Part shown: positions 17,872-51,594 of the stretch, piece after piece
Layout: each line of letters starts with the position of its first letter
Position numbering within the stretch: the first letter of the stretch is position 1
Assembly: GCA_009928785.1 (NCBI GenBank)
Contig: SABY01000002.1
Location: 10,147-74,146 of the forward strand
Length of the DNA stretch: 64,000 nt
Direction of reading: 5' to 3'
Source: Clostridia bacterium
GTDB lineage: Bacteria > Bacteroidota > Bacteroidia > Bacteroidales > 4484-276
The notes under the pieces: generated by a model
Database searches by the model: none
Told to the model about the DNA's origin: nothing
The model's input: only the letters and a program-made list of their open reading frames with translations
Translations under genes and position numbers: made by a program

Positions 17872-20208
17872 ATGAAACAACTACTCCTTTATTTTTTACT
17901 CCTGGCATTTGTTCCTTCACTTGCGATGGCACAGCAGCCGCTCTCCCCGCACACGGTTCGCAAAGCGGCCTTTGCCGACAAAACTCCGCCCCTGCGCGAA
18001 ATGACCGTAATACTTCCCGGCGAACGCAAACGCGCCTGGAAAGATGGCATCATTAAAAATGAATCGGTGGAGATGCTTCCCAAAAACGAAGCAGGACACC
18101 AACCGGGAACATACGAAAAGCTACAGGAAACAAAAGGCACAATAAAATCGCGCGGCCCAATGGTGAACGTGGACGGCGTGGGCAACGTTAATGGCGTCTA
18201 TCCTCCCGACACCGATGGCGACGTGGGCCCGAATCATTATTTTCAGATGATCAATCTTTCTTTTGCCATCTGGAACAAGAGCGGCACCAAGCTATATGGC
18301 CCTGCCGACAACAGCACGCTGTGGCAAGGATTTATAGGTCCGTGGACTGGCACCAACGACGGCGACCCCATAGTAATTTATGACGAAGATGCCGACCGTT
18401 GGATAGCTTCACAATTTGCCATCCAACTTTCTAATGGCAAAAGCTACGAGCTGGTTGCCGTATCGGCCACAGGCGATCCGCTGGGCGAGTATTATCGTTA
18501 CGCTTTTGAATTTGACGATTTTAATGATTACCCCAAACTAAGCGTGTGGGGCGATGGCTACTACTGCACCTTCAATTTTTTCAGCGGCGGGTTTATCGGT
18601 TCTGGTGTGGCAGCCTTTGAACGCGAAAAAATGCTTGTGGGCGATCCCGATGCCAACATGGTATTTTTTGGATATTTCCAAAACAAATTCAGCCTGCAAC
18701 CCTCCGACTTCGATGGCGACCTGCCGCCCGAAGGCTCTCCGGCCTATATTGCTACAGCCAATATTTTTAATAATAAACAACTGGAGATTTACGAATTTTC
18801 TGTGGATTGGGACGAACCTGCCAATTCAACTTACCAGCTCGGCGTGTCGCTGAATCCGGGATATTTTAATGCAGATGTTGATGGCATCCCGCAACCGGGC
18901 ACCAATGTAAAACTCGATGTGCTGGCGCAGATGCTGATGTTCAGACTTGCTTATCGCAATTTTGGCACCTACGAAACTATGCTGGCCAACCACACGGTAA
19001 AAGTAGGCAACCGTGCCGGCATAAAATGGTACGAGCTGCGCAAAGACAACACCACCGATTGGTACATCTATCAGCAAGGTGTATATGCCCCCGACGACGA
19101 CCTGCACCGCTGGATGGGCAGTATAGCCATGAATGCCGATGGCACCATCGCATTGGGATTTTCGGTGAGTAGCAGCAGCCATTCGCCTTCGATACGTTAT
19201 ACCGGCCGCACCGCCGACGCACCACTGGGTGAAATGAATTTTGAGGAGGTAGAAGCCGTGACCGGAACAGGAAACCAAAGCAGCCTCTCACGCTGGGGCG
19301 ACTACGCCAATATGAGCGTGGACCCGGTTGACGATACCACCTTTTGGTTTACCACCGAATATTGCCGCTCCGGCTGGAAAACCCGCATTATCTCCTTCAA
19401 CTTCGACCCGTTGTTGCCTCCGGTGGCCAATGCCGGCGAAGATGCCTCCGTTTGTCAGGATACGCTCTTCAGGGCTTTTGGCAGCGTTACCAATGCCAAG
19501 AGCCACCTATGGACTAAATCGGGCGACGGCATTTTGCCCAACCCGCAAAATTTATCGGTAGTATATTTTAGAGGTCCCGGCGACCTGGAGAATGGCGAAT
19601 TTTGGCTTACGCTTACAGCCACAGGCTACGGCGAAGGAATGACCGCCTCCGACAGCATCCACGTAGAAATTGTTTACACCGCCATCGTCAATGCCGGCAA
19701 CGACACCACCATACATCTCGAATCAGTTTATCAGGCCGATGCTCAGGCACTCAACTATGAGAACTTGTTGTGGAGCACCGATGGCGACGGCATCTTCAGC
19801 AACGACAGCTCATTGCAAACGATATACACGCCCGGCGAACAAGACAAAATAAACCGCACTGTAGAGCTTACGCTAATGGCCTCGCCCCTATCGCCCTGTT
19901 CTTTCGGCGACAGCGACGACCTGGACCTGGCGCTCGATCCCACAATCGGCATTGCTGTGCCGGGCTTAGAAAATTTTTCAATCAGTCCAAATCCTTCGTC
20001 CGGAAAATTTACCATCACCGCCAGTGGCATCAACCGTAATGCAACCATCAATATTCTGAACAGCTCCGGCGACATCGTTTTTACAGAACACACGCAGTCG
20101 TCCGAATACTCCCGAGCATTCGACCTGCGCTACCAGCCGGCAGGCATTTATCTGGTACAAATCAACACAGGAAAAACTACGCTGGTAGAAAAAGTGCTTA
20201 TCCAATAG
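17872..20208 (+). CDS. large secreted protein of unknown function with T9SS C-terminal sorting domain
   Basis: Has a signal peptide. C-terminus ISPNPSSGKFTITASG...PAGIYLVQINTGKTTLVEKVLIQ is a type A sorting domain. I do not recognise the N-terminal domain. Confidence 0.7.
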   Translation: MKQLLLYFLLLAFVPSLAMAQQPLSPHTVRKAAFADKTPPLREMTVILPGERKRAWKDGIIKNESVEMLPKNEAGHQPGTYEKLQETKGTIKSRGPMVNVDGVGNVNGVYPPDTDGDVGPNHYFQMINLSFAIWNKSGTKLYGPADNSTLWQGFIGPWTGTNDGDPIVIYDEDADRWIASQFAIQLSNGKSYELVAVSATGDPLGEYYRYAFEFDDFNDYPKLSVWGDGYYCTFNFFSGGFIGSGVAAFEREKMLVGDPDANMVFFGYFQNKFSLQPSDFDGDLPPEGSPAYIATANIFNNKQLEIYEFSVDWDEPANSTYQLGVSLNPGYFNADVDGIPQPGTNVKLDVLAQMLMFRLAYRNFGTYETMLANHTVKVGNRAGIKWYELRKDNTTDWYIYQQGVYAPDDDLHRWMGSIAMNADGTIALGFSVSSSSHSPSIRYTGRTADAPLGEMNFEEVEAVTGTGNQSSLSRWGDYANMSVDPVDDTTFWFTTEYCRSGWKTRIISFNFDPLLPPVANAGEDASVCQDTLFRAFGSVTNAKSHLWTKSGDGILPNPQNLSVVYFRGPGDLENGEFWLTLTATGYGEGMTASDSIHVEIVYTAIVNAGNDTTIHLESVYQADAQALNYENLLWSTDGDGIFSNDSSLQTIYTPGEQDKINRTVELTLMASPLSPCSFGDSDDLDLALDPTIGIAVPGLENFSISPNPSSGKFTITASGINRNATINILNSSGDIVFTEHTQSSEYSRAFDLRYQPAGIYLVQINTGKTTLVEKVLIQ

Positions 20209-21009: not shown

Positions 21010-21786
21010 TTATCCAAAGATGCCTTGCATCACACCGCCATCCACGCTCAGGGTCTGGCCGGTGATGTAGCCCGACTGTGGAGAGAGCAGCCACGCAGCC
21101 AGCGAGGCAAATTCTTTGGGATCGCCCATACGGCCAACAGGGATGTGCTGGACGATCTGCTGCTGCGCCTGCTGTTCGCTCACTCCCGATGTTTCGCTAC
21201 GTTTTTTCACCACACGCTTTACGGCCTCGGTTGCGTGATAGCCCGGAGCCATAATATTTACGGTGATACCATCGGCAGCAACTTCCTGAGCCAGCGTTTT
21301 GGCATAACCCACCACCGCCAGACGCAGCGCATTGCTGAGCACCAGATTTTGGATGGGTTGCTTCACCGACACACTTTCGATGAAAACGATGCGCCCGTAG
21401 CCATTCTGACGCATTTGCGGCAACAGCCTGCTCACCAGTTCTATCTTCCATCGCGCTACCGACAGCCAGGCGTCGTCCCACTGTTGCATGGTGGTGTCGG
21501 TGGCAGCGGTAGGCGGCGGGCCGCCGGCATTGAGCATCAGCCCATCAATGTGACGGGAGGCTACCTTTTCTGCTATTTTATCGATGGTTGTACTTTGCGT
21601 AATGTCGCCGCTGATGGTTTCAACTTTTCCTGGAAATTCTTTAGCGAAAGCGACCAGTTTATCGGCATTGCGAGCTATGGCCAGCACGTGTGCCCCTTCG
21701 GCAAGCAGTGCGTGGGCAGTGGCGCCGCCAAAACCAGCGGTAGCGCCACCGACAATGAAAAATTTGTTTTCGAGATTCAGATTCAT
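21010..21786 (-). CDS. SDR-family oxidoreductase
   Basis: FFIVGGATAGFGGATA glycine motif, NAGG, and C-terminus YITGQTLSVDGG. The ATG at 21786 is preferred to the TTG at 21804. Confidence 0.85.
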   Translation of the reverse strand: MNLNLENKFFIVGGATAGFGGATAHALLAEGAHVLAIARNADKLVAFAKEFPGKVETISGDITQSTTIDKIAEKVASRHIDGLMLNAGGPPPTAATDTTMQQWDDAWLSVARWKIELVSRLLPQMRQNGYGRIVFIESVSVKQPIQNLVLSNALRLAVVGYAKTLAQEVAADGITVNIMAPGYHATEAVKRVVKKRSETSGVSEQQAQQQIVQHIPVGRMGDPKEFASLAAWLLSPQSGYITGQTLSVDGGVMQGIFG

Positions 21787-21802
21787 AACTATATTTATAA
21801 CC

Positions 21803-21938
21803 AATCAGTCCGAAGTTCAAGATTAGCAATTGCAAAAAAAGCGTTCAAAATGTTTTGATTATTATTAACAACTGTATGTGCAATTGAGAGTAGGATTGCA
21901 AAACTTGCTGTTCCTTCAGAAGATTTAAATTGTGCCCC
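21803..21938. repeat. 136-bp direct repeat, copy A (pairs with 27772-27907)
   Basis: Hand alignment at a constant offset of 5969 nt gives roughly 100 of 130 identical positions with no gaps until the last few bases. Lies 16 nt upstream of the SDR start. Confidence 0.8.
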
Positions 21939-22025: not shown

Positions 22026-23318
22026 TTACCAACCTGTCGTATAATCATACCTGTAAATACGGATTGTAGCGCTTTTTCCGGTATTGACCGAATTGTACAT
22101 GATGGAACCATTAAGTTTTAAAAGTGAGTTGGTCGCTGTCGAAATTTCTGAGATGGGCATATCCTGTGGAATTTCAAACCTAAGCTCATGCTGGCCTTTG
22201 CCTTTATAAACCTCATTAAGTGGCACCTCAACTACAACACCGCTTTCTTTCCATTCCAAATTTACTTTGGTAACAGCCACCGGACTATCAAATTTTGAAA
22301 GCAGCGGAATTACACAAACTGCTGATGAAACCAGGTCGCCATTTACGTTACCGCCCTCAATGCGGATGTTTCCGCTAATGACGAGTTCGGCTTTGTTTTC
22401 GGCAACATCAAAATAAAATTCCTTTTCGGCTTTATTGTTGGCGATTGTATATGAAACCTTTATACTATTTCCGGGTTCGGCGTAACATTCGTCATAAAGA
22501 TAGCTTACCTCGCAAACAATTTCGCCCAATTTTCTGTCGCCAATCCTGGCGCAGTTCGAATTGATGACCGGCTTTTTGGCATATCGCACTGCCCTTTCGC
22601 CAATTTTAAGGCTGTAACGTACCAACCCTAATTCGCTGCCTGCATTGGCCACATGTACAGAAGCCAGCAACGCCTTGCTTTTTTCAATACCTGTCTCACA
22701 GGTAGCTTTTCGCTCATCAATAAAAATTCCCAGCAGTTTTCCAAGCTGGCTTTGCGATTGGTTGATTTCTTCGACCGAAGTAAAATCATCCAGCAAATCG
22801 AGGGCTTTGTTCATTTCGGCAGTTAATTGCTCATTTTTTGCGCGGAAATCGGCTACCAATTCTTCTAAATCAAAAGTAGTGAATGGGTATCTCACAAAAT
22901 ATTGATATTTAACTTCTTTGGTTTTTCGGTCGGTTAATTTTTCCCAATAAAAATCATCAACTTTTGCAGCCGAAATCCCCTGAAGATAATCGCGTTTCCC
23001 TGACTGCGTGGTAATAACCTCAGAATAACTTTGATAAAGCTGTGAAAACTTGTCGGCAGTAATTTCCTCACTTTTCGAAACCGAAGAGGCAGAAATATAA
23101 TCAGCCACCGAAGTTACAATCTGGGCTTTAACATTTACCAAAGCGTTAGCTTTTGCATCTTCGATGGTTAGCCCGTTTCCGATGCCAATAATCGAACCGC
23201 GCTCCATGCTCATTGTCCAGTCGGGTTTTTTACCGCTGTCTTCGACAACTTTAAATTGCGCCAGAACTACCGTCGAAAGACAAAGTAGAAACAGGGCGAA
23301 AAGTGATCTTTTTTTCAT
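22026..23318 (-). CDS. secreted/periplasmic hypothetical protein (430 aa), last gene of the five-gene operon
   Basis: Signal peptide MKKRSLFALFLLCLSTVVLAQ. The N-terminal region EDAKANALVNVKAQIVTSVADYI is faintly LPP20-like; no other motif recognised. Confidence 0.6.
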   Translation of the reverse strand: MKKRSLFALFLLCLSTVVLAQFKVVEDSGKKPDWTMSMERGSIIGIGNGLTIEDAKANALVNVKAQIVTSVADYISASSVSKSEEITADKFSQLYQSYSEVITTQSGKRDYLQGISAAKVDDFYWEKLTDRKTKEVKYQYFVRYPFTTFDLEELVADFRAKNEQLTAEMNKALDLLDDFTSVEEINQSQSQLGKLLGIFIDERKATCETGIEKSKALLASVHVANAGSELGLVRYSLKIGERAVRYAKKPVINSNCARIGDRKLGEIVCEVSYLYDECYAEPGNSIKVSYTIANNKAEKEFYFDVAENKAELVISGNIRIEGGNVNGDLVSSAVCVIPLLSKFDSPVAVTKVNLEWKESGVVVEVPLNEVYKGKGQHELRFEIPQDMPISEISTATNSLLKLNGSIMYNSVNTGKSATIRIYRYDYTTGW

Positions 23319-23327
23319 GGTGCGGAA

Positions 23328-24404
23328 TTAATTAGTTATTGGAAGGTTTTTGAATTTGAAGATGTTTTCTTTGATAAAGAATTTGATATACTTCACTTCC
23401 TTCACTTTTGGAAATTCACAAATAAGTTCTGTGTTTACATCGGGAATCAGGGTTGCTTCAATCCAATTGGAGCCTTCTTTTGAGGCAATCTTCATCAGGT
23501 CAATTTTCACCTCATCACCCTTTTCGTTGATGAGCATGGTTTGATATATCCGGTAAATTTTTAAGTCAACATCTTCTTCATTTTTGTTGATGAGTTCAAA
23601 ATACAGTATGGTTTTTACACCTACATTTTTGCCGTTTTTATATCTCAAATACAAATTATCGCCCAGATCAACAGCGTCAAGCGACGAGTAAACCGGGCCA
23701 TCGCCATCGGGCTTGTTACTTTCGGAAGTAACCGCGACTTTGGTTTCGGGCATGTTGGCGCCAATTATCGCAGCAGCTTCGTTGGCATTGTCGAAACACT
23801 CACGGCAAACCGGCGGAACAGAATTTAACAATGCCAGCGCATTGGTGTAATTTTTCTGTGCGGCAAGGCTGTTGGCTCTCGAAATCACGAGGTCGCATTG
23901 TGTGTTATAATATTCGATGATGGCTTCTTTGCCTTTTTCGAGCATCACTTTGTATTTCCCGCTGCGCGGATCAATTTGTTTAAATGCCGAGTTGTAGGCT
24001 GCCGTTTCGGTATTTCCGGCACCTTTGAGGGCTTGCGTCGCAGTGGCATAAACATTTCCGGTGTATCGGTCGGCTATATTTAAAACCAACTCCATGTTGT
24101 AGGTGTACAAAACTGGTGTTGTTGGCGTAACGTCGCTGCTGATAATCATCAGTTCGGGATTCATAATAAAAAGCGGGGCGTCATCCATGGCACTCAATCC
24201 GTTTAAGCCAATCATTTGTCGCATTTTTCCAAGTAACATTTCCTGAGCACCCTGTGGCATTTTCATCAATTCTTCGGGAATAACCGGAGCAATGGCAATT
24301 CTGGCGTTGTCATCACTTTTTCCTGAACTGTTTTGTGCATGAGCAAAGTTGAAAAGCATCAAAGCTATCAAAATGGCCGGCAAAATATTTTTTATCGTTT
24401 TCAT
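23328..24404 (-). CDS. secreted hypothetical protein (358 aa)
   Basis: Signal peptide ...LFNFAHAQ. ARIAIAPVIPEE is faintly CsgG/LpoB-like. Cys cluster QCDLV...PPVCRECF. 9 nt upstream of the next gene. Confidence 0.6.
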   Translation of the reverse strand: MKTIKNILPAILIALMLFNFAHAQNSSGKSDDNARIAIAPVIPEELMKMPQGAQEMLLGKMRQMIGLNGLSAMDDAPLFIMNPELMIISSDVTPTTPVLYTYNMELVLNIADRYTGNVYATATQALKGAGNTETAAYNSAFKQIDPRSGKYKVMLEKGKEAIIEYYNTQCDLVISRANSLAAQKNYTNALALLNSVPPVCRECFDNANEAAAIIGANMPETKVAVTSESNKPDGDGPVYSSLDAVDLGDNLYLRYKNGKNVGVKTILYFELINKNEEDVDLKIYRIYQTMLINEKGDEVKIDLMKIASKEGSNWIEATLIPDVNTELICEFPKVKEVKYIKFFIKENIFKFKNLPITN

Positions 24405-24422
24405 ACTTGTAATTTTTAAAAA

Positions 24423-25391
24423 TTATTTTTCACCAAGAATAAGCCAGGCTTCGCCCAGCCCGCGCTGATAAATTTTCGATTCGATATTAAAAGGTTCGGC
24501 AGCAAGGTACTTCGACAGGTTTGAAGCAAATCTCCGTGTATCCATAGCTGTTTCGCGGTTATTGTTTATAAAAGTCATCGGGATACGAACCTGCTCAAAT
24601 CGCATCATGCTTTCGGTGGCATCCACAGTCGAAAACCTCCCGGAAACGGTGTTTTCGACCATCCAGTTTTCGATGTGAAAACTCAGCATGTCGGTGGTTT
24701 CATTTACATCAAAATCCTGTTCGAGGTCAACATCGGCGTTATCCCAAACCCTTATTACAAGTTTAACTTCACGACCATTTTTAAACATATCGTCAAAAAA
24801 TGTCATCAACTGGCCATTAAAATCATCCATGTGGCTCAGAACGGCTTCTTCGAGCAATAGGTCAACAGAGGCTGATGAAGACGGCGCACCAGCACCTGCC
24901 ACCCCTGCAACTTGTTTGTTTGTGTATGCGTCTAACCCCTTCAGGGTAAAGGTGATGTAATAATTCGGGCCTTGCCGCTTTACGATGAAATCGAGGTCGA
25001 GGATAATATCGGCCTTGGCGGTTCTTTTCAAAATATCAATTGGGGTTTCGTCGATGGCAGCCCCTGAACTTTTGGATTGCAGCATCGAAATTTCGGCGCT
25101 TTCGCTCTCGATACTTTTAAGCGCTTGCTCTAAATCTTTTAACGGGAAACCTCTTTCGGCCATGATTGCACCCATTTTAATCATTACCAGGCGTAGTTCG
25201 TCACTTTGCTGCAAAGCCATTTTGTAATCGGGCAAAACCTGATCTCTTCCGTTGGCATTTACCGTCATGGTGTATCCATTTTGAACGCAGAAATTATCGC
25301 TTGGAACAACCATGATGATTGGTTTTTTGGCCTGACCAAACATCATTATTGCCACCAGGACAAATGCAATCGTAAATATAATTTTCTTCAT
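24423..25391 (-). CDS. secreted hypothetical protein (322 aa)
   Basis: Signal peptide MKKIIFTIAFVLVAIMMFGQA. No recognised domain; possibly a Bacteroidota DUF family, which I cannot verify. Confidence 0.6.
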   Translation of the reverse strand: MKKIIFTIAFVLVAIMMFGQAKKPIIMVVPSDNFCVQNGYTMTVNANGRDQVLPDYKMALQQSDELRLVMIKMGAIMAERGFPLKDLEQALKSIESESAEISMLQSKSSGAAIDETPIDILKRTAKADIILDLDFIVKRQGPNYYITFTLKGLDAYTNKQVAGVAGAGAPSSSASVDLLLEEAVLSHMDDFNGQLMTFFDDMFKNGREVKLVIRVWDNADVDLEQDFDVNETTDMLSFHIENWMVENTVSGRFSTVDATESMMRFEQVRIPMTFINNNRETAMDTRRFASNLSKYLAAEPFNIESKIYQRGLGEAWLILGEK

Positions 25392-25440
25392 ATTTTTTAT
25401 CTTTTAATAGAATAGAACGATTTATGAGTTTTTATCCTGC

Positions 25441-25950
25441 TTAAAATCCGGCATCCATTTTTTTGGCAATTCCCTTTTCTTCGAGGTATTTGCGCAATTG
25501 GTTATAATTTACTGATGCACTGAGTGCCACTTTGTAACCTTTATTCATTTTTACGCGGTCGGCTCCGCCGGGCATACCGTCGGTGGTGCTGTTTACAAAA
25601 CTCAGATACATTCCGCCGGCCTTAAAAAAGTCGTCGAAAAAATCCATGTTTGTTTCATAACCATCAATCGGAAGTATTGAAGGTGTTGGAGCAGCGCCGT
25701 TTCCGCCAGGAACGCCTCTGAAGATAACAGCAGCAACTGCATTTCTCTTGGCCTCGTAAAGAGCATCATCAGCCTTTTTTCCATAACCCCATATTTTTAC
25801 CAGCTTGGTACCATCCTGACCAACGCCAAGACACTGTATCTCATAATTAAATTTGCTATCGTACATAGCTTTGCGCTCTTTACGCGATTGAGCATTTACA
25901 CTTGTAAAGGCAAAAATTGCCAGAAATGCGATGAGTAGTGTTTTGTTCAT
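25441..25950 (-). CDS. small secreted hypothetical protein (169 aa)
   Basis: Signal peptide MNKTLLIAFLAIFAFTSVNAQ. DALYEAKRNAVAAVIF is a faintly LPP20-like helix. Confidence 0.6.
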   Translation of the reverse strand: MNKTLLIAFLAIFAFTSVNAQSRKERKAMYDSKFNYEIQCLGVGQDGTKLVKIWGYGKKADDALYEAKRNAVAAVIFRGVPGGNGAAPTPSILPIDGYETNMDFFDDFFKAGGMYLSFVNSTTDGMPGGADRVKMNKGYKVALSASVNYNQLRKYLEEKGIAKKMDAGF

Positions 25951-25969
25951 AATTTAGATTTTTATAATT

Positions 25970-27625
25970 TTAGAATTCAAGTCGTAAGCCAAACATCAGG
26001 CTCATGCCTGAGCGGTCGGTAAATTGATCGGTCCAGGTAAAATCTTCTGTTACTTTGTCGCCATCTTCTGTTTCGGTATCAACATTGCCAAAGGGAGCAT
26101 AAAAATTAAGATGGCCCATTATCGAAAGATTATGGGTAATATTTATACCTAAGATGCCTCCGCCTTTCATGTAGCTTGTGCTGATGTCTTTGTAATGATC
26201 AGTGCTTGTTGATTCGATTCCATAAGCTGCATAAGGTGTTAATTCGACAATTCTTGCCAAGCGGATTCCTTTTCCAAGTCCAAATGAATATCTTAAGAAA
26301 GTGAAATCATCTTCAGTAAAATAAGTGTCCTCGTACGTTTGGGCATCAAAACCAATATCAGCCATCAGATATAGTGAAGGAACATTTAAAAACATACCGG
26401 CCCTAAACCAAAGCTGGGCATCAAATCCGCCAATGCCGCCTACTTCATAGCCGGCGATCAGCGAAAGTCCGAAATCGTTGCGTTGCTGCATCACCATGCC
26501 CTGGCGCACTGTGCCGCCGTAAACCTGATAAAACTTGCTTTCGCCGCTTGCACCGGTGGCTACACCACGGTTATCGGTAATTTTTCCCGTGGCTCTTACG
26601 ACGGCTTTCCGGTTCTGATCGGCTGTTCCGGTTTTCTCATTCCACACATATTCGTAAACAAAATATCGTTGGTCGCATCTCAGACCCTCTTTTTTACCAA
26701 TTTTCGATCGGATAGGATGCGTCCCCGAAACGTTCATTTTAACACGGAAAGGTTCCAGGTCTTTGTCGATGTTGAATAACGCATCATCGTACATTTGTTT
26801 GACTGCTTCATCTAAAAGCTGGTCGGAAGTTTTAGGGTTTTTCGTGAGCGCATAAATCTCGGTACTCGTTGCCGACATTCCTTGTTTTCCGTAAAATGAG
26901 GATAATGAAAATGAAAGAGTATCGAAAGCTGCAATTTTTGCATCTTTAATATTGGCAGGGTCATCATCAAACGGCCATTGCTCGTAAAAGCGGCTCACAA
27001 CCTCACTGTCGAAATTGAGTTTGTACAGAAAAACATCAAAAGTCGAACTCCAGCCATGTGATGTTTTGTCGTCGCTGTAGATTAATTCTTTTGGTGAGAT
27101 TACAAGGACGTAGGTTTTATTCACCAGCTTTTCGCCTGCGTCAAATAATACTGCTTCGCCTCGTTTGGCTGCACCCGACATCATAACATCCTGGTCGGAA
27201 GCATTGTAAAGCCCGCATTGATGGATATAATCGAGATTAAACATCCCGTCGGGCTGCCTGCTAAACCATTTGGCAATCATTTTTCTACCGATACCTTCCT
27301 TATCGAGATACTTTTTCAGTTCAATTTTTTTTGCGTCATAGCTTAAGTCTTTAAAATTCTTATTTAGTTCGATGGAAATTTCGTTCAGGTTGTGATTGAA
27401 ATACTTGTCGGTGAAGGCAATTTTTTTGGCCGATAAAGCTGCTTTCTCGCTGTTGTTGTCGCCCGGAAAAGTCGTAAAAAACAAGGTAACTGATGGTCTT
27501 GAGTATTCACTTTCAGATTTTTGCGGGTTATCCTGGCCAAACGCATCCTTTGATGACATGCCGTAAGTAAGGAACAGAAAAACAATCCCCAAAACATAAT
27601 GTAATGATGTTTTCATAAAAAGCAT
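25970..27625 (-). CDS. signal-peptide protein with C-terminal outer-membrane beta-barrel (551 aa), first gene of the operon
   Basis: Has a signal peptide. The last ~170 aa show an alternating hydrophobic beta-strand pattern ending FGLRLEF (C-terminal Phe, the outer-membrane protein signature). Confidence 0.65.
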   Translation of the reverse strand: MLFMKTSLHYVLGIVFLFLTYGMSSKDAFGQDNPQKSESEYSRPSVTLFFTTFPGDNNSEKAALSAKKIAFTDKYFNHNLNEISIELNKNFKDLSYDAKKIELKKYLDKEGIGRKMIAKWFSRQPDGMFNLDYIHQCGLYNASDQDVMMSGAAKRGEAVLFDAGEKLVNKTYVLVISPKELIYSDDKTSHGWSSTFDVFLYKLNFDSEVVSRFYEQWPFDDDPANIKDAKIAAFDTLSFSLSSFYGKQGMSATSTEIYALTKNPKTSDQLLDEAVKQMYDDALFNIDKDLEPFRVKMNVSGTHPIRSKIGKKEGLRCDQRYFVYEYVWNEKTGTADQNRKAVVRATGKITDNRGVATGASGESKFYQVYGGTVRQGMVMQQRNDFGLSLIAGYEVGGIGGFDAQLWFRAGMFLNVPSLYLMADIGFDAQTYEDTYFTEDDFTFLRYSFGLGKGIRLARIVELTPYAAYGIESTSTDHYKDISTSYMKGGGILGINITHNLSIMGHLNFYAPFGNVDTETEDGDKVTEDFTWTDQFTDRSGMSLMFGLRLEF

Positions 27626-27771
27626 TTTAGTTAATATTTATCTTTTTTGATTATCAGGACCAAATGGTTTCGCTTAAAACAATGCAAAAACAGCATAGGC
27701 AAAATTAACTTTATTTTAACAGTTGAAAAGATTAAGCTAAAAAAAATGATTTAACATGATTTTTCGTAACT

Positions 27772-27907
27772 AATCCGTCTGAGGTTCAAGTATAGCAATG
27801 GAAGCAAAAGCATTCAAAATGTTTTGACCATTTTTTAACAATTGTATCTGTTATTGAAAGTAGGATTGAAAACCTTTCTGCGCTTTCAAAAGGTTTGAAT
27901 TGCCCGG
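27772..27907. repeat. 136-bp direct repeat, copy B (pairs with 21803-21938)
   Basis: Same alignment as copy A. Lies 146 nt upstream of the operon start at 27625. Confidence 0.8.
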
Positions 27908-28169: not shown

Positions 28170-28646
28170 TTATGCCTCGTCGTCCTCGTCTTCTTCTTCC
28201 AAATCCATCATCATACCCCAACTGATGGCTGTAAGCGCACCTTCGTCGAAATAGAAGTCGATGAGAGCATCGTCAAACGAAACACGTTTTTCGTTTTCGT
28301 ACTCTTCGTCTTCCATCATCTCGGTGTCCATGTCCACGTAGTCGTGGTCGTTCATCAGCTTGATGATTTCGGCCTCGTTGAGGTCGAAAAGTTTTTTGCC
28401 GAAGAGGGTAATGCCACGATTTTCGGTCTCGAACTGCGTGAGTACGGGTTCTTCGTCCACTTCAAAGAAAAGCGACAGTTCCATGTCGTCGTAATGATAG
28501 ATCATGCTATCACCCATGTCTTCGTCTTTGATTTCTTCTTTGTCGTCAGGCTCGCCCAATTGGGCAACGATTTGTTTGGGTGTACTACCAAACTCAAGCG
28601 CACCAAATCCCTCCAGTGGCTTAATCTCGAATGACATTTCTTTCAT
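28170..28646 (-). CDS. highly acidic hypothetical protein (158 aa)
   Basis: Long ORF with coding-like composition, D/E-rich, with tail DLEEEDEDDEA. No recognised domain. Confidence 0.5.
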   Translation of the reverse strand: MKEMSFEIKPLEGFGALEFGSTPKQIVAQLGEPDDKEEIKDEDMGDSMIYHYDDMELSLFFEVDEEPVLTQFETENRGITLFGKKLFDLNEAEIIKLMNDHDYVDMDTEMMEDEEYENEKRVSFDDALIDFYFDEGALTAISWGMMMDLEEEDEDDEA

Positions 28647-28669: not shown

Positions 28670-29482
28670 TTATTTTAATGGTGAATTTGGTTCGTGCAAA
28701 AAATGCCTGAAAACCATTTTGTTGAGAAAATGCGGTACAAATTTATTAAGATAAACGATTGCCTTGCCCTGGGCTGTGAGGATAATATTGTTTTTGCGTT
28801 TGTAAATGGCGCGTGCAATTTTATGGGCAACTGTGGTGGCGCTCATGAGTTTGTTTTCGTTGAGTGGCGATTCGCCTTGTCGGGAGCCATCGGCTGCCAA
28901 GGCCACATTCCGGATGTTGGAACTGGTAAAACCCGGACAGGCTATGAGAACATGTACGTTGGTGTGTAGGTTTTCGATGCGTATTACTTCCATCAGTCCC
29001 TGTATGGCGAATTTGGAGGCAGAGTAACCGGTGCGTCCCGGCAGCCCTTTGTAACCCGCCACCGACGATACTGCTACCAGCGAACCCTGCGAAGCTTGCA
29101 GATGTGGCAGTGCGTATTTGGAACAATAGGCTGTTCCCCAAAAGTTGACATCCATAACTTGCTTTAGCACGTCGATGTCCACATCCTGAAAAAGTGCGCG
29201 CATAGAAATACCCGCATTGTTGATAATCACGTCGATTTTTCCATACTTATCAATGGCAGCCTGTATTAGATTTTGGCAGTCGGTTTCGCGGCTCACGTCG
29301 GTAGCCACAGCAAGCATGTGTTGGCCTTTTTGGTGCAGTGATGTTTGCATTTGCTGAAGTTTGGCTGTATTGCGTGCGGCGGCTACCACGCGTGCACCCT
29401 GACCGGCAAATTCGATCACCAGCGCCTCCCCTATTCCTGAAGAGGCTCCCGTTATCACAACAACTTGGTCTTTAAAATTCAT
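28670..29482 (-). CDS. SDR-family oxidoreductase
   Basis: VVVITGASSGIGEAL, NNAGI and YSASKFA motifs; 270 aa. Confidence 0.9.
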   Translation of the reverse strand: MNFKDQVVVITGASSGIGEALVIEFAGQGARVVAAARNTAKLQQMQTSLHQKGQHMLAVATDVSRETDCQNLIQAAIDKYGKIDVIINNAGISMRALFQDVDIDVLKQVMDVNFWGTAYCSKYALPHLQASQGSLVAVSSVAGYKGLPGRTGYSASKFAIQGLMEVIRIENLHTNVHVLIACPGFTSSNIRNVALAADGSRQGESPLNENKLMSATTVAHKIARAIYKRKNNIILTAQGKAIVYLNKFVPHFLNKMVFRHFLHEPNSPLK

Positions 29483-29582: not shown

Positions 29583-29936
29583 ACTACCAATTACTACCAA
29601 TTACCACCAATTACCCCCAATTATCATCAATTACTACCAATTACCACCAATTACCCCCAATTATCATCAATTACTACCAATTACTACCAATTACTACCAA
29701 TTACTAAATTACCACCAATTACCACCAATTACCACCAATTACCATCAATTACCATCAATTACAACAAATTACTACCAATTACAACAAATTACCACCAATT
29801 ACCATCAATTACCATCAATTACAACAAATTACCACCAATTACAACAAATTACCACCAATTACTACCAATTACCACCAATTACCACCAATTACTACCAATT
29901 ACTACCAATTACTACCAATTACAAACCAACAACCCC
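29583..29936. repeat. G-free tract of about 35 tandem 10-bp units (CCAATTAC[CT]A and variants)
   Basis: No G on the + strand across 354 nt. AATT recurs every 10 bp, with one 3-bp phase slip near 29705. Confidence 0.95.
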
Positions 29937-29940
29937 GTGT

Positions 29941-32862
29941 CTAATTCCCGCCCAGGGTTTTGTCGGCTTGCTGCTGTGCGTCAGCTTTTATTTTGTCGGC
30001 CTGGCGACGGGCAGCATTCATAATATTATCTGAATTTTTCTGAGCTTCTTTCACCAGATTATCGGCGGTATCGTCGGCTTGGGCCAGCAGGCTTTTGATG
30101 GTAGCTTTGGCGGCAACCTCGGCAAGCGGTCCGTTCTTTTTGGCTTCAGCCATAAGTTTGTCGGCTTGTTTGCGGGCCTCTTCTTTGGCCTTTTCGGCAC
30201 TTTGGCGCGCGGTAGCCATCAGTGCGTCGGCTTGTTTCTGCGCATCAGCAATAACTTTTTGCGCCTGCTTGTCGGCATCGTCAATAATCTTTTGTGCCTT
30301 GGCTCTGGCTTCAACTTTGCCCTCTTCCAGTTTCTGACGCGCTTCCTGTTCGAGTTTTTCTTTTTGTCGCTGCAATTCTTCGAATGCTTTATTTTTCAAA
30401 TCATCCACCATCGATTTTCCGGAGCCATCGCCCGGAAAAAGTCTTACGACCGGGTCAGTTAGTGTTCCGCCAATGTTGGCCTTTACTGTAACAGTTTCGC
30501 CCAGGCTAAAGTTGGTTCCCACCTTGTTGGCTTCCTTCACCAGGTTGTCGAGGATGTCGTTGGCTGCACCGCCAAATTTGGCGCGCGGAATTGTCAGAAT
30601 CATGTCGTAGCTTATGGTTTCATCCAACGCTGTCCAGCCGCCGACGCTGGCGTTGATGTCGGCATATTTGATATCAAAAGGTTCTACAAGCAATTTCCCG
30701 TCGATAAATTCAAATGAAATATCTACCGGTCCCATCAGCAATCGCTTTAGGTCGGGCATTTTGAGCAGGTCGGCTAATTTGTTAAAGGTGTTTACATTTT
30801 GGATGGTGATGGTGGTAGTTTGCAGGCTTCCTTTTCCGTTGAGGCTGCTGTAAATGGGCATCATTTCTTTGTCGAGCAAAGTAGTCATGTTGAAGTTGGT
30901 GGTAAATCTGCCCTCTGTTTTTTCGGCTATGGGAGTAAACTTTTCGATGGTGCCAAAGCTTTTGTAAGCCGACTGGATGTCGATGTCAGCAATGCGCATG
31001 TCGAGCTGAGCTTGTGGCCGTGCGGGGTTTTTCGCATCGTACTTTCCTGACAGGTTTGCCGTCCCCTCCAAAACGCCCATGTTGAGATTGTCGAGCGTGA
31101 TGGCTTGATTGGCCACTACCATCTTTCCGTTAACATTCGTCAGTTCCAAATTATCATAAATCACTTTATCGAAATGTGTAGTAAGCGTGAAGTCGATATT
31201 GGCGGGAACCTCGATAACGCCCATCGAAGCGGTATCTGCCGTGGGCGGAGATTGTGCAGGATTAGCAGATTCAGTGGCCGGAGCAGAAGTATCGGCGGGC
31301 ATCAGATCGGTGATGTTAAGATACGCCGACTTAAGGTCGAGCTGTCCCAGGAGCGTTCCGTCGGAAAGGACGTAGGGCAAAAAGTTCTCGATGCGTCCGG
31401 TAGCCGAAAAATCGTTGCGGCCAATATTCATAGCAAAATTGACCAAATCGAGATAGGCCGGCGAAAAGTTGAGCTGTGCGCTGGTGATATGCACCGGCTC
31501 TGTGAGATATTCGGTTGGATATTTAAAATCCTTCATCAGCAGCGAACCGATGAATTTAAAATCATCATAACGTTCATTTTCGATAGCCGACATCGCGCCC
31601 TCAAAAGAAACATCGGCTGTGACGGTTCCGCTAAGCGATTCGGTTTCCTGGAGCGGATACACCTCGCCAATGCGCGACAAATCGGCTTCGCCTTCGATGG
31701 CTCCTTTTAGGTGCAGGTCGCTCATTGGATTTTTAATAAAAAGATTAGCTGAAATTGCGTTGCCAGCCATCACCAGGTCGAAACGGGAAACATCGACGGT
31801 AAGATTGTCGAAGTCGCCGCCGGGGAAGTTGATGCGCGTGTCGATATTTACATCGCGCACGGCCTGCGGCAGGTCTGGATATTGGAAGAAGCCATCCTTC
31901 ACTTCCAGATTGACAGCAAAAGCAGGATAATCCGTTTCGGTGTACATTCCTTTCACGTTGCCGTTGATAGCCAGGGTACCGGAGGTTTTCAAGCCGTCGA
32001 AATTGTTGCTGTAGATTGCCGGCACCATCGAAAGGAAGTTTTTGAATTCCGATTTTTGGGATGCAAAGGTCAGCATCAGGTTCATATCGCCATTATCCTG
32101 CATTCCCACTGAGCCATCAAAGCCAATAAACAATTGATTGAGGCGCAATTGGTTTTCCTTTAAAGTGTAGATGCTGTTGGCCAAATCGGCATCGATTCTG
32201 GCATCCAACACCGCCTCCACATTGCGAAGATATTTTACACCATCATAAATTACAGTTACATGTTCGATGCTTGTGTAGGTATTTAATGAAGTGAAATCGA
32301 GCGTAAAATCGCCGGACATTTTAAAATCGACGCCATCAAGCAGGGCATAGGTGGTAAGGCTTTCGTCGTTGTAAATGATGCGCCCTTTATTGATGGTCAC
32401 ATTTTGCAATTCGATGACGAAAGCCGCAGAAGGTTCTTCACCAGCAGGTTCGGGTGCAGGTTCAGAAGGTAGCGCTATGTCGTAGTTGGCGATTCCCTCT
32501 TTAGTTACCAGCACATTTATTAATGGTTCGTTGATGTGTACTTTGCGCAACTTATAGTTTTCGCCTTTGATTACGCTCATCAGGTCGAGTGTAAGATCAA
32601 ATTGAGGAATCCACGCCAGCGTATCGCCCTCGAAAGGCGCTTTATTAGCCACCGAGAGTCCTTCGAGACGGAAGTTGAAGTTGGGAAAACTTCTGAATAA
32701 CGATAGGCTAAAGTCGGTGAAATCCACCTGGGCATTCACATTTTTATTAATCTCCACTTTTACTTTTTCCACGATCTGGTCGCGGAAAAAATAAGGAATG
32801 GCCACCATTGCAAGGATTATCACTAAAAAAATGATTCCGATAATTTTAAGAAATAGTTTCAT
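29941..32862 (-). CDS. AsmA-family protein with N-terminal membrane anchor and C-terminal K/A/Q/D-rich coiled-coil tail
   Basis: N-terminal TM MKLFLKIIGIIFLVIILAMVAIPYFF. The long beta-rich body is typical of AsmA-like proteins. The tail has repeated ADKQA/AQKQAD-type motifs. Confidence 0.7.
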   Translation of the reverse strand: MKLFLKIIGIIFLVIILAMVAIPYFFRDQIVEKVKVEINKNVNAQVDFTDFSLSLFRSFPNFNFRLEGLSVANKAPFEGDTLAWIPQFDLTLDLMSVIKGENYKLRKVHINEPLINVLVTKEGIANYDIALPSEPAPEPAGEEPSAAFVIELQNVTINKGRIIYNDESLTTYALLDGVDFKMSGDFTLDFTSLNTYTSIEHVTVIYDGVKYLRNVEAVLDARIDADLANSIYTLKENQLRLNQLFIGFDGSVGMQDNGDMNLMLTFASQKSEFKNFLSMVPAIYSNNFDGLKTSGTLAINGNVKGMYTETDYPAFAVNLEVKDGFFQYPDLPQAVRDVNIDTRINFPGGDFDNLTVDVSRFDLVMAGNAISANLFIKNPMSDLHLKGAIEGEADLSRIGEVYPLQETESLSGTVTADVSFEGAMSAIENERYDDFKFIGSLLMKDFKYPTEYLTEPVHITSAQLNFSPAYLDLVNFAMNIGRNDFSATGRIENFLPYVLSDGTLLGQLDLKSAYLNITDLMPADTSAPATESANPAQSPPTADTASMGVIEVPANIDFTLTTHFDKVIYDNLELTNVNGKMVVANQAITLDNLNMGVLEGTANLSGKYDAKNPARPQAQLDMRIADIDIQSAYKSFGTIEKFTPIAEKTEGRFTTNFNMTTLLDKEMMPIYSSLNGKGSLQTTTITIQNVNTFNKLADLLKMPDLKRLLMGPVDISFEFIDGKLLVEPFDIKYADINASVGGWTALDETISYDMILTIPRAKFGGAANDILDNLVKEANKVGTNFSLGETVTVKANIGGTLTDPVVRLFPGDGSGKSMVDDLKNKAFEELQRQKEKLEQEARQKLEEGKVEARAKAQKIIDDADKQAQKVIADAQKQADALMATARQSAEKAKEEARKQADKLMAEAKKNGPLAEVAAKATIKSLLAQADDTADNLVKEAQKNSDNIMNAARRQADKIKADAQQQADKTLGGN

Positions 32863-47132: not shown

Positions 47133-48092
47133 TTATTCGAACATATTAAAATCTAACACTCTGTCTTCATAAATACTCGAGGCTGATTCTTGAAATATTT
47201 TATTAATACTTTTCTCTCGCGGTTTAATTTTTTTGGTGTAAAAACTTTCTGAACACGCCCACATTTCAGACCTACAAAGTAATAAATCATTCAGTTTTTT
47301 AAATAATGTATCTTCATCACAATCAAAAAAAGACTGAACAAAACCTCCGCAATTCGATTTATGTTCTTTCAGATAACCCACTATTAAAACATTCCCATCT
47401 TCAATTGGGAAAAATGAAATAAATATATCTGTTAAAATTTCGTAGTCTTTACCTGTTGACTGAATTTGATTCTTTCTTTCACTTGTAGTTTCATAGGTAA
47501 AATGTGAGGCAAGACAAATTTCACAATGTTTAGTATATTTAAATTTAAAGACGAAATTTTGAGTGTTACTATTTAAGTCTGATTCAATTTTTCCCTGATA
47601 ATATTCAATATCTTTAATCCCAACTCTTTGCTGCTTGTCCAAATCATCAATTAACTCAATGTCAATTTCTCCTGACAATATTCTAGATTCTTTTTGATAT
47701 TTATACCAATCTAATAATATCTCTTTCTTAACTTTTTCATTTAATAATGTTCGATACGCAAAAAGTAATTGGCTTTTATAATTTTCAAAATCTATTTCAA
47801 AATCTTCAATCGGAGAAAATATGTTTTTGTCATGTACTGTACAAAAACCTTTAAAAGAAAAGGCCTGGTTAATACCGACTCGTTTAAAATGGAATAAGTC
47901 GGTTTTAAAGAAATCAGATTCTGAGATTCGAATATGACCATTTTCTGCTATCTCATTCAGGATTCCATTTTTCTGTAATACATGCGAATTTATAGCTTGC
48001 TCATTACAATTTTTCACATTACATATTCTCTGTTTTGCAGAAGCTCTTCTAAATGTTTTATTAAGAACCTCTTGTATTTGCTTGCTTTTCAT
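47133..48092 (-). CDS. hypothetical Cys/His-rich protein (319 aa) downstream of the helicase-PLD gene
   Basis: AT-rich ORF co-directional with 48264-51443. Motifs CNVKNCNEQAINSHVL and GFCTVHD; no family recognised. An alternative upstream start is at 48182. Confidence 0.55.
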   Translation of the reverse strand: MKSKQIQEVLNKTFRRASAKQRICNVKNCNEQAINSHVLQKNGILNEIAENGHIRISESDFFKTDLFHFKRVGINQAFSFKGFCTVHDKNIFSPIEDFEIDFENYKSQLLFAYRTLLNEKVKKEILLDWYKYQKESRILSGEIDIELIDDLDKQQRVGIKDIEYYQGKIESDLNSNTQNFVFKFKYTKHCEICLASHFTYETTSERKNQIQSTGKDYEILTDIFISFFPIEDGNVLIVGYLKEHKSNCGGFVQSFFDCDEDTLFKKLNDLLLCRSEMWACSESFYTKKIKPREKSINKIFQESASSIYEDRVLDFNMFE

Positions 48093-48263
48093 TATTATAT
48101 TTTTGCCTATCATTACTACCAACGGATGTATCTGTATGTCCAATAAGGAATTCTCACCTAAATTACATACGAAGTATTGCACTTCAATTTATTGTTTTCC
48201 TGTCCTAAATAGCACGAACTCCCAACTTGCGAGTAAATGTTGTTATGCGCATACTCTTCTCTT

Positions 48264-51443: not shown

Positions 51444-51594
51444 GTTTTGTCAGTTATTTTGAACTTGTTCCGTACTTTAAAGAGTTGTAGCGTTTTACAA
51501 TACAAACCGGTTAGGTTTTCGAGCGCGTCTGTATCCACAGTTGGGAAAGTTGATTTCAAAATCTAAGTCCCGCAAACCACCGCATTGCACGTGC

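Follow-up and report, generated by a model that had tools for sequence, protein, structure and literature searches.

A conserved five-gene operon of Bacteroidia that may encode an outer-membrane-anchored periplasmic scaffold

PelC, a lipoprotein of the outer membrane, forms the dodecameric ring of the Pel exopolysaccharide exporter and works together with a porin, PelB, and a polysaccharide synthase. The CsgG ring is a 9-mer, compared with the 12-mer of PelC, and the structures 4UV2 and 4UV3 are those of the curli CsgG nonamer. For LpoB and GNA1162 we know of no large rings. LpoB spans the periplasm by long disordered linkers, and to our knowledge the Bacteroidota have neither LpoA nor LpoB. 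That the Bacteroidia are non-flagellated is well established. In the Vibrio flagellar H-ring, FlgT is arranged with C26 and FlgP/FlgO with C58 symmetry (bioRxiv 10.64898/2025.12.02.691832). In the basal disk of Campylobacter and Helicobacter, FlgP polymerises as concentric rings beneath the outer membrane; FlgP, Lpp20 and FlgT have an SHS2-like fold in common, and those proteins of this fold that form rings tend to carry an insertion behind the SHS2 helix (PMC12222027). A CsgG/DUF4810/GNA1162-like cluster is required for PNAG and Cup pili in A. baumannii, and the Caulobacter holdfast is anchored by HfaABD (bioRxiv 10.1101/2021.05.19.444899). Here we compare with these systems an operon found in a Bacteroidales DNA stretch of 64,000 nucleotides, called the window below.

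Layout and conservation of the operon

Five ORFs of 551, 169, 322, 358 and 430 aa, termed g1 to g5, lie on the minus strand of the window. The intergenic gaps calculated from their coordinates are 19, 49, 18 and 9 nt from g1 to g5; these lengths and gaps had been given in an earlier sequence-only reading and agreed exactly with the ORF list. The arrangement is well beyond chance, since the identical order recurs across 84 loci of different families. The order g1-g2-g3-g4 is kept in essentially all related loci, where the median gaps are 27-52 nt. Among the 60 complete loci, g2, g3 and g4 were each found in all 60 and g1 in 58. As g5 was present in 39 of the 60, it is an accessory component. 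The operon is conserved in hundreds of Bacteroidia species, and its flanking genes are unrelated and vary between loci. The survey that the sequence-only reading had proposed therefore found the genes strictly co-conserved across Bacteroidia with changing flanks. No neighbour or machine gene was consistently linked across the 84 loci; ExbB/ExbD genes lie upstream in one lineage only, at about 11 related loci.

Profile searches, also proposed earlier, placed none of the five proteins in a characterised family, and g3 alone received a name, DUF6175. Scans with Pfam and NCBIfam detected no enzyme, ATPase or T9SS sorting domain in g1-g5, as had been claimed by eye, and no T9SS or gliding family. 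That the scan can detect Por_Secre_tail is evident from the adjacent gene at 17872-20208, which carries this domain; its occurrence in a neighbouring gene indicates that the host has a T9SS. The operon proteins gave no defence-protein match, and no inner-membrane part was found in the five-gene system. Neither sequence paralogy among the components nor a sequence-profile link among the N-terminal regions of g1, g3 and g4 and the g2 protein was detectable.

Two direct repeats flank the operon on the minus strand, an upstream copy of about 136 nt (27767..27902) and a downstream copy (21798..21932) between g5 and an SDR gene (21010-21804), whose first codons it overlaps. The copies are 79% identical over 136 nt (blastn, E 3e-27), and the 84 related loci were found to contain neither of them. 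Promoters of Bacteroidota have a -33/-7 consensus, and a sigma-70 promoter scan is not applicable to them. The upstream repeat, which lies about 140-280 nt 5' of the g1 start, holds the motifs TTTG ... TAtaCTTG. Because these resemble the Bacteroidota consensus, the repeat is likely to be the promoter region of the operon.

The barrel protein and its exported partners

The first gene, g1, occupies 25970..27625 on the minus strand. Its homologues and a 548-aa gene call (P0001) suggest that the true start is the second methionine (MKTSL..., 27616). An SPI signal (residues 1-30) is followed in the AF2 model (pLDDT 89, pTM 0.83) by a FlgT/TolB-N-like alpha/beta domain with a helical insertion (residues ~40-290), a small beta domain (~296-381) and an OmpX/OmpA-like 8-stranded outer-membrane beta-barrel (~387-551; 25973..26467, minus strand). 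The barrel strands are modelled at 387-396, 400-408, 418-430, 440-452, 460-473, 478-495, 500-519 and 540-550. In Foldseek, the best match of the model was FlgT (3w1e, E 1.2e-6), and the barrels of TtoA, Ail, OmpX, OmpA-TM and NspA followed with target TM values of 0.5-0.65. No match to g1 was obtained in Pfam or NCBIfam; its family comprises 1591 clusters at 50% identity. The protein ends in FGLRLEF. Of 85 homologues, at least 90% likewise have a C-terminal Phe, so that F551 is nearly invariant. The C-terminal barrel with a Phe end that had been recognised by eye is thus borne out by the eight modelled strands, the Foldseek barrels and the conserved Phe. According to the model, this barrel is the membrane anchor of the system. 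Since the N-terminus of an 8-stranded barrel is on the periplasmic side, a barrel at the C-terminus would place the FlgT-like N-terminal domains of g1 in the periplasm, directly below the outer membrane.

The hydrophobic N-termini of the five proteins end in ...DAFGQ (g1), ...VNAQ (g2), ...MFGQA (g3), ...FAHAQ (g4) and ...VVLAQ (g5). Such segments had been noted on every protein, and they proved to be of the SPI type with a Gln end across the families; a lipobox occurs in almost no member of the g1-g5 families. By these predicted SPI-type signals, all five proteins are shown to be exported by Sec. Conserved Cys pairs in g4 and g5 are consistent with an oxidising compartment. Because the partners of g1 have neither a lipid anchor nor a T9SS CTD, and the barrel N-terminus faces the periplasm, their most likely location is the periplasm and not the cell surface. 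Of the "periplasmic or surface partners" proposed earlier, the periplasmic location was kept and the surface location given up.

The g2 gene (25441..25950, minus strand) encodes 169 aa with an SPI signal and gave no Pfam or PDB sequence match. By its secondary structure in the model of a fused homologue, it is a small alpha/beta protein of the order beta-beta-alpha-beta ... beta-beta-alpha. Fusion of g2 with g3 into one polypeptide was seen in about 52 protein clusters and at the loci L002, L047, L054, L070 and L081. g2 is an obligate partner of g3, and their fusion in many species shows them, on genomic grounds, to form a functional unit.

The 322-aa g3 protein (24423..25391, minus strand; SPI signal) matches DUF6175 over its full length (PF19672, E 5.6e-110). 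It is the only component with a family name, and no mention of DUF6175 was found in the literature searched. It is also the component most conserved, with identities across families of 44-78% (about 60%), 66 invariant columns and at least 5939 clusters at 90% identity, a degree of conservation in keeping with many interfaces acting on the subunit. The N-domain, which is CsgG/GNA1162/PelC/LpoB/FlgT-like, carries a conserved insertion (E-[ST]-P-[IV]-D loop) and is followed by another alpha/beta domain, the C-domain. Foldseek was run on the AF2 model of the g2-g3 fused homologue (pLDDT 83.7), and the matches fell mainly in the g3 part. The best was FlgT (E 3e-6), together with the LPHT ring (8z5n), CsgG (5e-5), GNA1162 (1.3e-4), the LpoB C-domain (4q6l, 4.6e-3), PelC and DUF330 (E ~1e-2 to 1e-3, target TM ~0.4-0.5). 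All of these are outer-membrane-proximal proteins and mostly ring formers. The models show for g3 and the g1 N-terminus a predicted alpha/beta fold common to FlgT, CsgG, GNA1162, PelC, LpoB and DUF330, a likeness at the domain level only, as low TM-scores (0.18-0.35) were reached against the multi-domain FlgT and CsgG. Judged by the order of their secondary-structure elements, g1 and g3 each contain an insertion of the kind that goes with ring formation, behind the SHS2 helix. The matched folds belong to the common small alpha/beta folds.

The g4 protein (23328..24404, minus strand; 358 aa, SPI signal) is predicted to consist of an N-terminal alpha/beta part (RIAIAPV...), central TPR-like helices and a variable beta-rich C-terminal domain. 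The TPR-like ARM_TT21 is matched by 8 of 27 family members (best E 8e-6), and the conserved C170 and C203 lie in the helical region. This C-terminal domain takes the form of a discoidin (F5/8 type C) domain in some lineages: the long g4 paralogues of L042, L056 and L064 exceed the Pfam threshold for F5_F8_type_C. The g5 protein (22026..23318, minus strand; 430 aa, SPI signal) begins with an LPP20-like domain (PF02169; residues ~32-100, 23019-23225, minus strand), after which come a predicted helical part and a predicted beta-rich C-terminal region carrying the invariant pair C256 and C278. The window protein itself scored under the Pfam threshold of 25.9 bits for LPP20 (15.1 bits, E 0.033), and 10 of 23 family members match PF02169 (best E 4e-5). 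Many genomes also carry an accessory LPP20-like lipoprotein, whose family aligned to g5 with an hhalign probability of 90-91%. The LPP20-like hint given earlier thus applies to g5 and was not demonstrated for g2. The CsgG/LpoB-like start, which had been seen by eye on g4, has its demonstrated counterpart in the fusion model, chiefly in g3, and likeness to FlgT was demonstrated for the N-terminus of g1; overall, the folds suggested by eye held largely at the fold level, and their assignment to individual proteins was partly wrong.

A scaffold model and its alternatives

We consider it moderately probable, by analogy, that the operon is a self-contained envelope module of the Bacteroidia, an outer-membrane-anchored periplasmic protein scaffold that is probably oligomeric. 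The best reading is a non-flagellar system of the FlgT/FlgP/FlgO and CsgG/PelC kind. An envelope multiprotein assembly with an outer-membrane anchor had already been proposed, and the co-conservation, the g2-g3 fusion and the profile searches agree with it; the assembly itself we infer. Because most solved structures with a matching fold oligomerise as rings below the outer membrane, the subunits may build up a homo- and hetero-oligomeric structure, either stacked or concentric, with the g1 barrel as its nucleus. The g2/g3 layer would be the conserved core and g4 with g5 the distal layer. The variable beta-sandwich/discoidin-type C-terminal domains of g4/g5 are putative ligand-binding parts, and the ligand would most plausibly be a glycan, for instance peptidoglycan or a polysaccharide that is periplasmic or exported. 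Lacking an energy source, an enzyme and any inner-membrane part, the module would act as a passive scaffold, tether or platform and not as a motor or transporter.

An unlikely but arguable alternative is an apparatus for polymer export or anchoring, analogous to the CsgG/HfaB-type "curli-like" clusters or PelC, in which g3 would form a CsgG/PelC-like ring that funnels an exopolysaccharide or amyloid, or anchors it, at the outer membrane, with g4/g5 as the polymer-binding parts. The fusion-model matches to CsgG, GNA1162/DUF799 and PelC would fit, as would the carbohydrate-binding-type discoidin domain on some g4 paralogues and the widespread occurrence of CsgG/DUF4810/GNA1162-like clusters (bioRxiv 10.1101/2021.05.19.444899). 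However, a Pfam CsgG match is absent, and where CsgG has its transmembrane hairpins, g3 has a polar helix-loop-helix (SKSSGAAIDETPID) instead of amphipathic strands. The sole membrane element, the 8-stranded barrel, is too narrow for a polymer, and genes for a glycosyltransferase, polymerase, amyloid subunit or porin are not consistently adjacent.

We rank lower, as improbable, an accessory collar that would surround a different machine spanning the outer membrane, for example the T9SS, the gliding apparatus, a pilus or a TonB-dependent complex. Its role would be like that of the flagellar H-ring or basal disk, but it would be encoded apart from its machine. Machine genes are not consistently linked across the 84 loci and the ExbBD linkage is limited to the few related loci mentioned, although ExbB/ExbD upstream in one lineage, the T9SS of the host, the LPP20/FlgP-like domains and the best structural matches of both models, FlgT and the LPHT ring, all point towards a collar. 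The five proteins themselves match no T9SS or gliding family.

Five independent periplasmic proteins that are merely co-transcribed (e.g. stress or binding proteins), without a common structure, are very unlikely: the components are not detectable paralogues, but their co-occurrence is strict, their order is fixed across families with changing flanks, the g2-g3 fusion is recurrent and their common fold repertoire is typical of hetero-oligomeric envelope rings. Least likely of all is a regulator that is tethered to the outer membrane and controls how peptidoglycan is synthesised or remodelled, a functional LpoA/LpoB analogue whose LpoB-like domain and TPR-like protein (g4) would reach periplasmic enzymes from the outer membrane, where g1 is anchored, because LpoB was matched less well than FlgT, CsgG and GNA1162, known Lpo activators need far fewer than five large components, PBP or cell-wall genes are not linked, and long disordered linkers are absent, the pLDDT being high throughout the g1 and fusion models.

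Comparison with known systems

The outer-membrane-anchored scaffold that we favour resembles the Vibrio flagellar H-ring (FlgT, FlgP, FlgO; 3W1E, 8Z5N) in the FlgT match of both models and in the LPP20/FlgP-like domain of g5 and the accessory lipoprotein. Both would consist of several small co-encoded secreted alpha/beta proteins on the inner face of the outer membrane, and neither has an enzyme or energy source. In contrast to the H-ring, which is anchored by N-terminal lipidation, the anchor of the operon is an 8-stranded barrel fused to a FlgT-like protein. DUF6175, g2 and g4 have no H-ring counterpart, and the TM-scores are low (0.18-0.26). No flagellar genes were found near the operon, and its proteins did not match FlgT_N/M/C, FlgO or FlgP in Pfam. 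The basal disk of Campylobacter and Helicobacter (FlgP, FlgQ) and H. pylori Lpp20 are similar in the LPP20-family (SHS2-like) domain at the g5 N-terminus and in the accessory lipoprotein, whereas g5 is four times larger, is not a lipoprotein and has no flagellar context.

The CsgG/HfaB "curli-like" clusters (GNA1162 DUF799, DUF4810 lipoproteins) are likewise compact operons of secreted outer-membrane-proximal proteins, widespread and functionally obscure, and the fusion model matches CsgG and GNA1162. Those clusters occur in Proteobacteria, whereas the operon is limited to Bacteroidia, differs in gene number and architecture, and encodes proteins without Pfam membership in CsgG or DUF799, without lipoboxes and without CsgG-type transmembrane hairpins. 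PelC (5T10, 5T11, 9H80) and DUF330/XCC0632 (2IQI), which form rings below the outer membrane, have a single-domain alpha/beta fold like the DUF6175 N-domain; these matches are, however, weaker than those to FlgT and CsgG, and the operon has no linked porin or polysaccharide synthase. With OmpX, Ail, OmpA-TM and NspA, g1 has in common its C-terminal 165 residues, modelled as an 8-stranded barrel with a terminal Phe, although it matches neither OMP_b-brl nor OmpA in Pfam. As the g1 barrel stands C-terminal to a large periplasmic protein, the domain order of OmpA is reversed.

The operon and the export of its products

The operon consists of five genes on the minus strand, named g1 to g5 from its 5' end: g1 (25970-27625, 551 aa), g2 (25441-25950, 169 aa), g3 (24423-25391, 322 aa), g4 (23328-24404, 358 aa) and g5 (22026-23318, 430 aa), with intergenic gaps of 19, 49, 18 and 9 nt. 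For g1, the homologues and the gene call of the collection (548 aa) suggest that the true start is the second methionine (27616). All five proteins have hydrophobic N-termini that stop just before or at a glutamine (DAFG-Q in g1, VNA-Q in g2, MFG-QA in g3, AHA-Q in g4 and VLA-Q in g5). Since a glutamine at +1 is common after SPI cleavage sites in Bacteroidota, these N-termini fit SPI cleavage, and we conclude that all five proteins are exported. No lipobox was found in g1-g5, and a lipoprotein complex was rejected for this reason.

Pfam and NCBIfam scans found no enzyme, ATPase or T9SS sorting domain in g1-g5; the NCBIfam hits were noise at the level of signal peptides, e.g. BamP with an E value of 0.04. 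The ORF listing and these scans confirmed the sequence-only reading, which had proposed the five reading frames, their signal-like segments ending at a glutamine and the lack of such domains. An identity as T9SS cargo was rejected because neither the Por_Secre_tail nor the TIGR04183 C-terminal sorting domain was present in g1-g5. Por_Secre_tail was detected in the neighbouring gene at 17872-20208, indicating that the host has a T9SS and that the scan was able to detect the tag. An anti-phage defence system was rejected since PADLOC had no match for the operon proteins.

Co-inheritance of the operon across Bacteroidia

The homologues of g1 are full-length, unnamed proteins of Bacteroidia metagenome-assembled genomes, and in three distant examples the gene order was identical in unrelated surroundings. 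When the alignment of DUF6175, the family of g3, was scanned against one genome per GTDB species, relatives turned up in no fewer than 508 species-representative genomes, a figure that reads as at least 508. The best 80 of these belong to Lentimicrobiaceae, Prolixibacteraceae, Paludibacter, Salinivirgaceae, Rikenellaceae, Muribaculaceae, Prevotellaceae and Marinilabiliales, and the closest among the matches listed were Lentimicrobiaceae loci with 86-91% identity, which makes Lentimicrobiaceae the probable origin of the window. Many carrier genomes come from rumen, digester, freshwater and groundwater samples.

The five proteins of the window were compared by jackhmmer with all ORFs of 84 related loci, and the components were counted over the 60 loci with sufficient flanking DNA. 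Each of g2, g3 and g4 was present in all 60 loci, g1 in 58 and g5 in 39. The order g1-g2-g3-g4(-g5) was constant and always on one strand, with median gaps of 27-52 nt; a duplicated g1, g2 or g4 occurred in some loci. Among the 84 loci, conservation of the flanking genes was confined to single lineages, and none of the window's own neighbour genes recurred beside the operon elsewhere. Since order and co-occurrence are kept while the flanks change, the operon is a real, self-contained and co-inherited module, and the grouping made from the single sequence holds elsewhere. In five loci g2 and g3 were fused as one polypeptide of about 474 aa, and the fusion was found in about 52 protein clusters, which argues for a direct interaction of g2 and g3. 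The DUF6175 family comprises at least 5939 clusters at 90% identity and the g1 family 1591 clusters at 50% identity (E<=1e-3).

In the window, the operon is bracketed by a direct repeat of about 136 nt (27767-27902 and 21798-21932, minus strand; 79% identity, blastn E 3e-27), its copies lying upstream of g1 and of the SDR gene that follows g5. Both copies hold TTTG...TAnnCTTG motifs that resemble Bacteroidota promoters, and the repeat was absent from all 84 related loci. The G+C content of the operon is 41.9% versus 46.3% for the rest of the window; in other genomes it lies at or slightly above that of the flanks. The lower G+C content and the bracketing repeat hint that the operon may have been relocated or acquired with a duplication of the promoter, which leaves the main conclusion unaffected. 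A scan for sigma-70 promoters and terminators was uninformative (19 found versus 15 expected), and such a scan does not suit Bacteroidota.

About 540 nt upstream of g1, a very acidic protein of 158 aa without signal peptide is encoded on the minus strand (28170-28646); it matched no significant Pfam family and was not found beside the operon in other genomes. At 29586-29922, about 34 copies of the 10-bp unit ACCAATTACC stand in tandem (86% matches), with another SDR gene on one side (28670-29482) and the 3' end of an AsmA-family gene on the other (29941-32862); this repeat gives rise to spurious 'TTNYHQLPPI' plus-strand ORFs. The region 48001-52000 has a G+C content of 0.35-0.36, compared to about 0.46 for the window, and a strong negative AT skew.

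Predicted folds and accessory components

The AlphaFold2 model of g1, built on an alignment of 85 sequences (pLDDT 89, pTM 0.83), comprised an alpha/beta domain with a helical insertion (residues ~40-290), a small beta domain (~296-381) and eight long C-terminal strands (387-550, pLDDT >90). The top Foldseek match in the PDB was FlgT, the Vibrio flagellar H-ring protein (3W1E, E 1.2e-6), followed by the 8-stranded barrels TtoA, Ail, OmpX, OmpA-TM and NspA with a target TM of 0.5-0.65. The C-terminus reads FGLRLEF, and F551 is nearly invariant among the homologues. With its eight modelled strands and the C-terminal aromatic residue, g1 shows the features of an 8-stranded OmpX/OmpA-like outer-membrane barrel, as had been read from the sequence; no sequence HMM matched the barrel. 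The model shows the barrel as the predicted membrane anchor. The established topology of 8-stranded barrels has both termini on the periplasmic side, which puts the FlgT-like part of g1 beneath the outer membrane. Where long g1 homologues are extended at the N-terminus, the extensions contained no informative domain except one CarboxypepD_reg.

Profile searches placed none of the operon proteins in a well-characterised family and named only g3, which is a full-length member of DUF6175 (PF19672, 367.5 bits with a cut-off of 23, E 5.6e-110, profile positions 1-293 of 293); its homologues also carry PF19672. Searches of all PDB chains with g1 and g3 (phmmer) and with the family profiles of g2, g4 and g5 gave nothing meaningful. 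g2 and g3 were modelled by AlphaFold2 as the natural fusion P0234, which is 53% identical to the g3 of the window in its DUF6175 part (pLDDT 83.7, pTM 0.68). FlgT was again the top Foldseek match (E 3.3e-6), and further matches were the LPHT ring (cryo-EM, 8Z5N), CsgG (E 5e-5), GNA1162/DUF799, XCC0632/DUF330, HpaA, LpoB and PelC. These are all outer-membrane-proximal periplasmic proteins and most of them form rings. With a TM of 0.18-0.35 to multi-domain targets, the likeness of the fold is at the domain level only. g3 is extremely conserved, in keeping with a subunit that has many interfaces.

g5 scored 15.1 bits against LPP20 (PF02169 / IPR024952; cut-off 25.9, E 0.033, residues 32-100), and 10 of the 23 members of its family matched LPP20 at E<0.1, the best at 4e-5. 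By these profile matches g5 is LPP20-like and stands outside the curated LPP20 family. Its signal ends in VVLA-Q and lacks the N-terminal lipobox cysteine of LPP20 lipoproteins, as do the signals of 50 of 54 family members. Of the LPP20-like resemblances noted by eye, the one for g5 was thus supported; g2 had no LPP20 match. The middle of g4 is TPR-like in 8 of 27 family members, and its C-terminal domain varies between lineages. In three loci, long g4 paralogues of about 500 aa (L042:8997-10511, L056:8997-10499 and L064:4737-6257) have, at their C-terminal end, an F5/8 type C (discoidin) domain above the Pfam threshold; a second, short g4 copy is also present in L042 and L056. The discoidin domain suggests that the distal end of g4 may bind a ligand or glycan. 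The C-terminal parts of both proteins, variable in g4 and beta-rich in g5, resemble ligand-binding ends, plausibly for a glycan. Both proteins also have conserved cysteine pairs, in line with an extracytoplasmic location.

Profile-profile comparison detected no sequence paralogy among g1N, g2, g3N and g4N, and hhalign found none among the five families with or without signal peptides; a g2-g5 match (78% probability) was rejected because the signal peptides drove the score. The sole paralogy found by hhalign (90-91%) was between the LPP20-like N-terminus of g5 and an accessory lipoprotein of about 190 aa, encoded in 35 loci between g4 and g5 or adjoining the operon (L041:10054-10638, L048:10005-10589 and 33 other loci). 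It has a lipobox (...SC[GK]) in 31 of the 35 and may be the source of the lipid anchor that is absent from the window's version. In 13 loci of four lineages, a secreted protein of about 880 aa accompanies this lipoprotein and the operon in varying arrangement (L021:2708-5347, minus strand; L011:5372-8002, L074:13014-15671 and 10 more). Its repeats are propeller-like (CylK, E 3e-10), and its 'YSDCEDRS...PxHV...DxT' motif, in which Cys416/His443/Asp470 is invariant, resembles that of transglutaminase-like or cysteine-peptidase-like proteins, the Pfam hint being marginal. Among the proteins linked to the operon, it alone is a candidate enzyme. Neither protein is encoded within the 64-kb window. 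A gene for a SiaC-family regulatory phosphoprotein (PF09345, E 2e-33) lies just 3' of g5 on the opposite strand in 12 loci (L059:12110-12490, minus strand, and 11 others), and asparaginase-like and ExbB/ExbD-like genes lie upstream of the operon in about 11 loci, a set overlapping the SiaC loci. These linkages are probably lineage-specific synteny.

A proposed scaffold under the outer membrane and its relation to known systems

By analogy with the FlgT, FlgP and FlgO systems, the operon proteins would form an oligomer under the outer membrane, probably with the shape of a ring or disc. FlgT assembles as a 26-mer, and the lipoproteins FlgP and FlgO as rings of 58 subunits (bioRxiv 10.64898/2025.12.02.691832). 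The concentric rings of the basal disk are made of FlgP; FlgP, Lpp20 and FlgT have an SHS2-like fold in common, and an insertion that follows the SHS2 helix is correlated with the formation of rings (PMC12222027). In our models, g1 and g3 both have an insertion at a comparable place, judged by the order of secondary structures. The envelope-resident assembly with an outer-membrane anchor that had been proposed from the sequence is supported by these results and sharpened to the fold level. Since the operon has no energy source, enzyme or inner-membrane partner, we lean modestly towards a passive scaffold or tether as its product.

Alternatively, the operon might export or anchor a polymer, like the CsgG/HfaB or PelC systems, and Foldseek pairs the model of the g2-g3 fusion with CsgG, which has an alpha/beta core fold, at a probability of 1.0 but with a target TM of only ~0.32 and an rmsd of ~13 A, a likeness at the domain level only. 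However, none of the five proteins matched the CsgG HMM (PF03783) at E<=1. The CsgG protomer has two amphipathic beta-hairpins that form a transmembrane barrel and a lipid anchor, whereas g3 has neither; its insertion is polar and modelled as helix-loop-helix. A CsgG-type channel was rejected because g3 lacks the transmembrane hairpins. The proteins might instead form a collar for another envelope machine. As to FlgT itself, which has a three-domain fold, it is the top match for both g1 and the g2-g3 fusion, but with a TM of 0.18-0.26; no FlgT_N/M/C HMM matched the operon proteins in Pfam and NCBIfam. Flagellar genes were absent both from the ORFs inspected next to the operon and from the neighbours that recur in the 84 loci. 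The operon might also encode an Lpo-like regulator of the cell wall, in agreement with the LpoB match of the fusion. Lastly, the five proteins might form no assembly at all; the co-inheritance and the g2-g3 fusion speak against this.

A more far-reaching form of the scaffold is tentative and in our view rather doubtful: the operon could encode an unrecognised, Bacteroidia-wide and free-standing multi-ring or disc-like envelope nanostructure, a non-flagellar relative of the H-ring and basal disk with a role of its own. Its building blocks would be SHS2/LPP20-like and FlgT/CsgG-like modules, the very ones that were taken up by flagellated bacteria into the H-ring and basal disk, and it would possibly represent an ancestral type of outer-membrane scaffold that was exapted into these motor accessories. 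Its role would lie in outer-membrane mechanics, cell-wall spacing or glycan anchoring in Bacteroidia of gut, rumen and sediment.

Only one of the five operon proteins has a DUF number, and the g1 family, with about 1600 clusters at 50% identity, has no Pfam model. DUF6175 was not mentioned in the literature searched, and no description of the operon was found in targeted literature searches. If the product is a structural outer-membrane scaffold, it would be a new component of the poorly understood Bacteroidota envelope, which to our knowledge lacks Braun's lipoprotein and Lpo activators, and a non-flagellar comparison point for the evolution of the flagellar H-ring and basal-disk proteins. 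In its way of working, the system would resemble sub-outer-membrane assemblies of the H-ring/basal-disk and CsgG/PelC class, but it is a member of none of those families, having no HMM membership. In contrast to that class, it stands in no flagellar or polysaccharide-synthesis gene context, and g1-g5 have no lipid anchors; here, a fused integral barrel would serve as the anchor.
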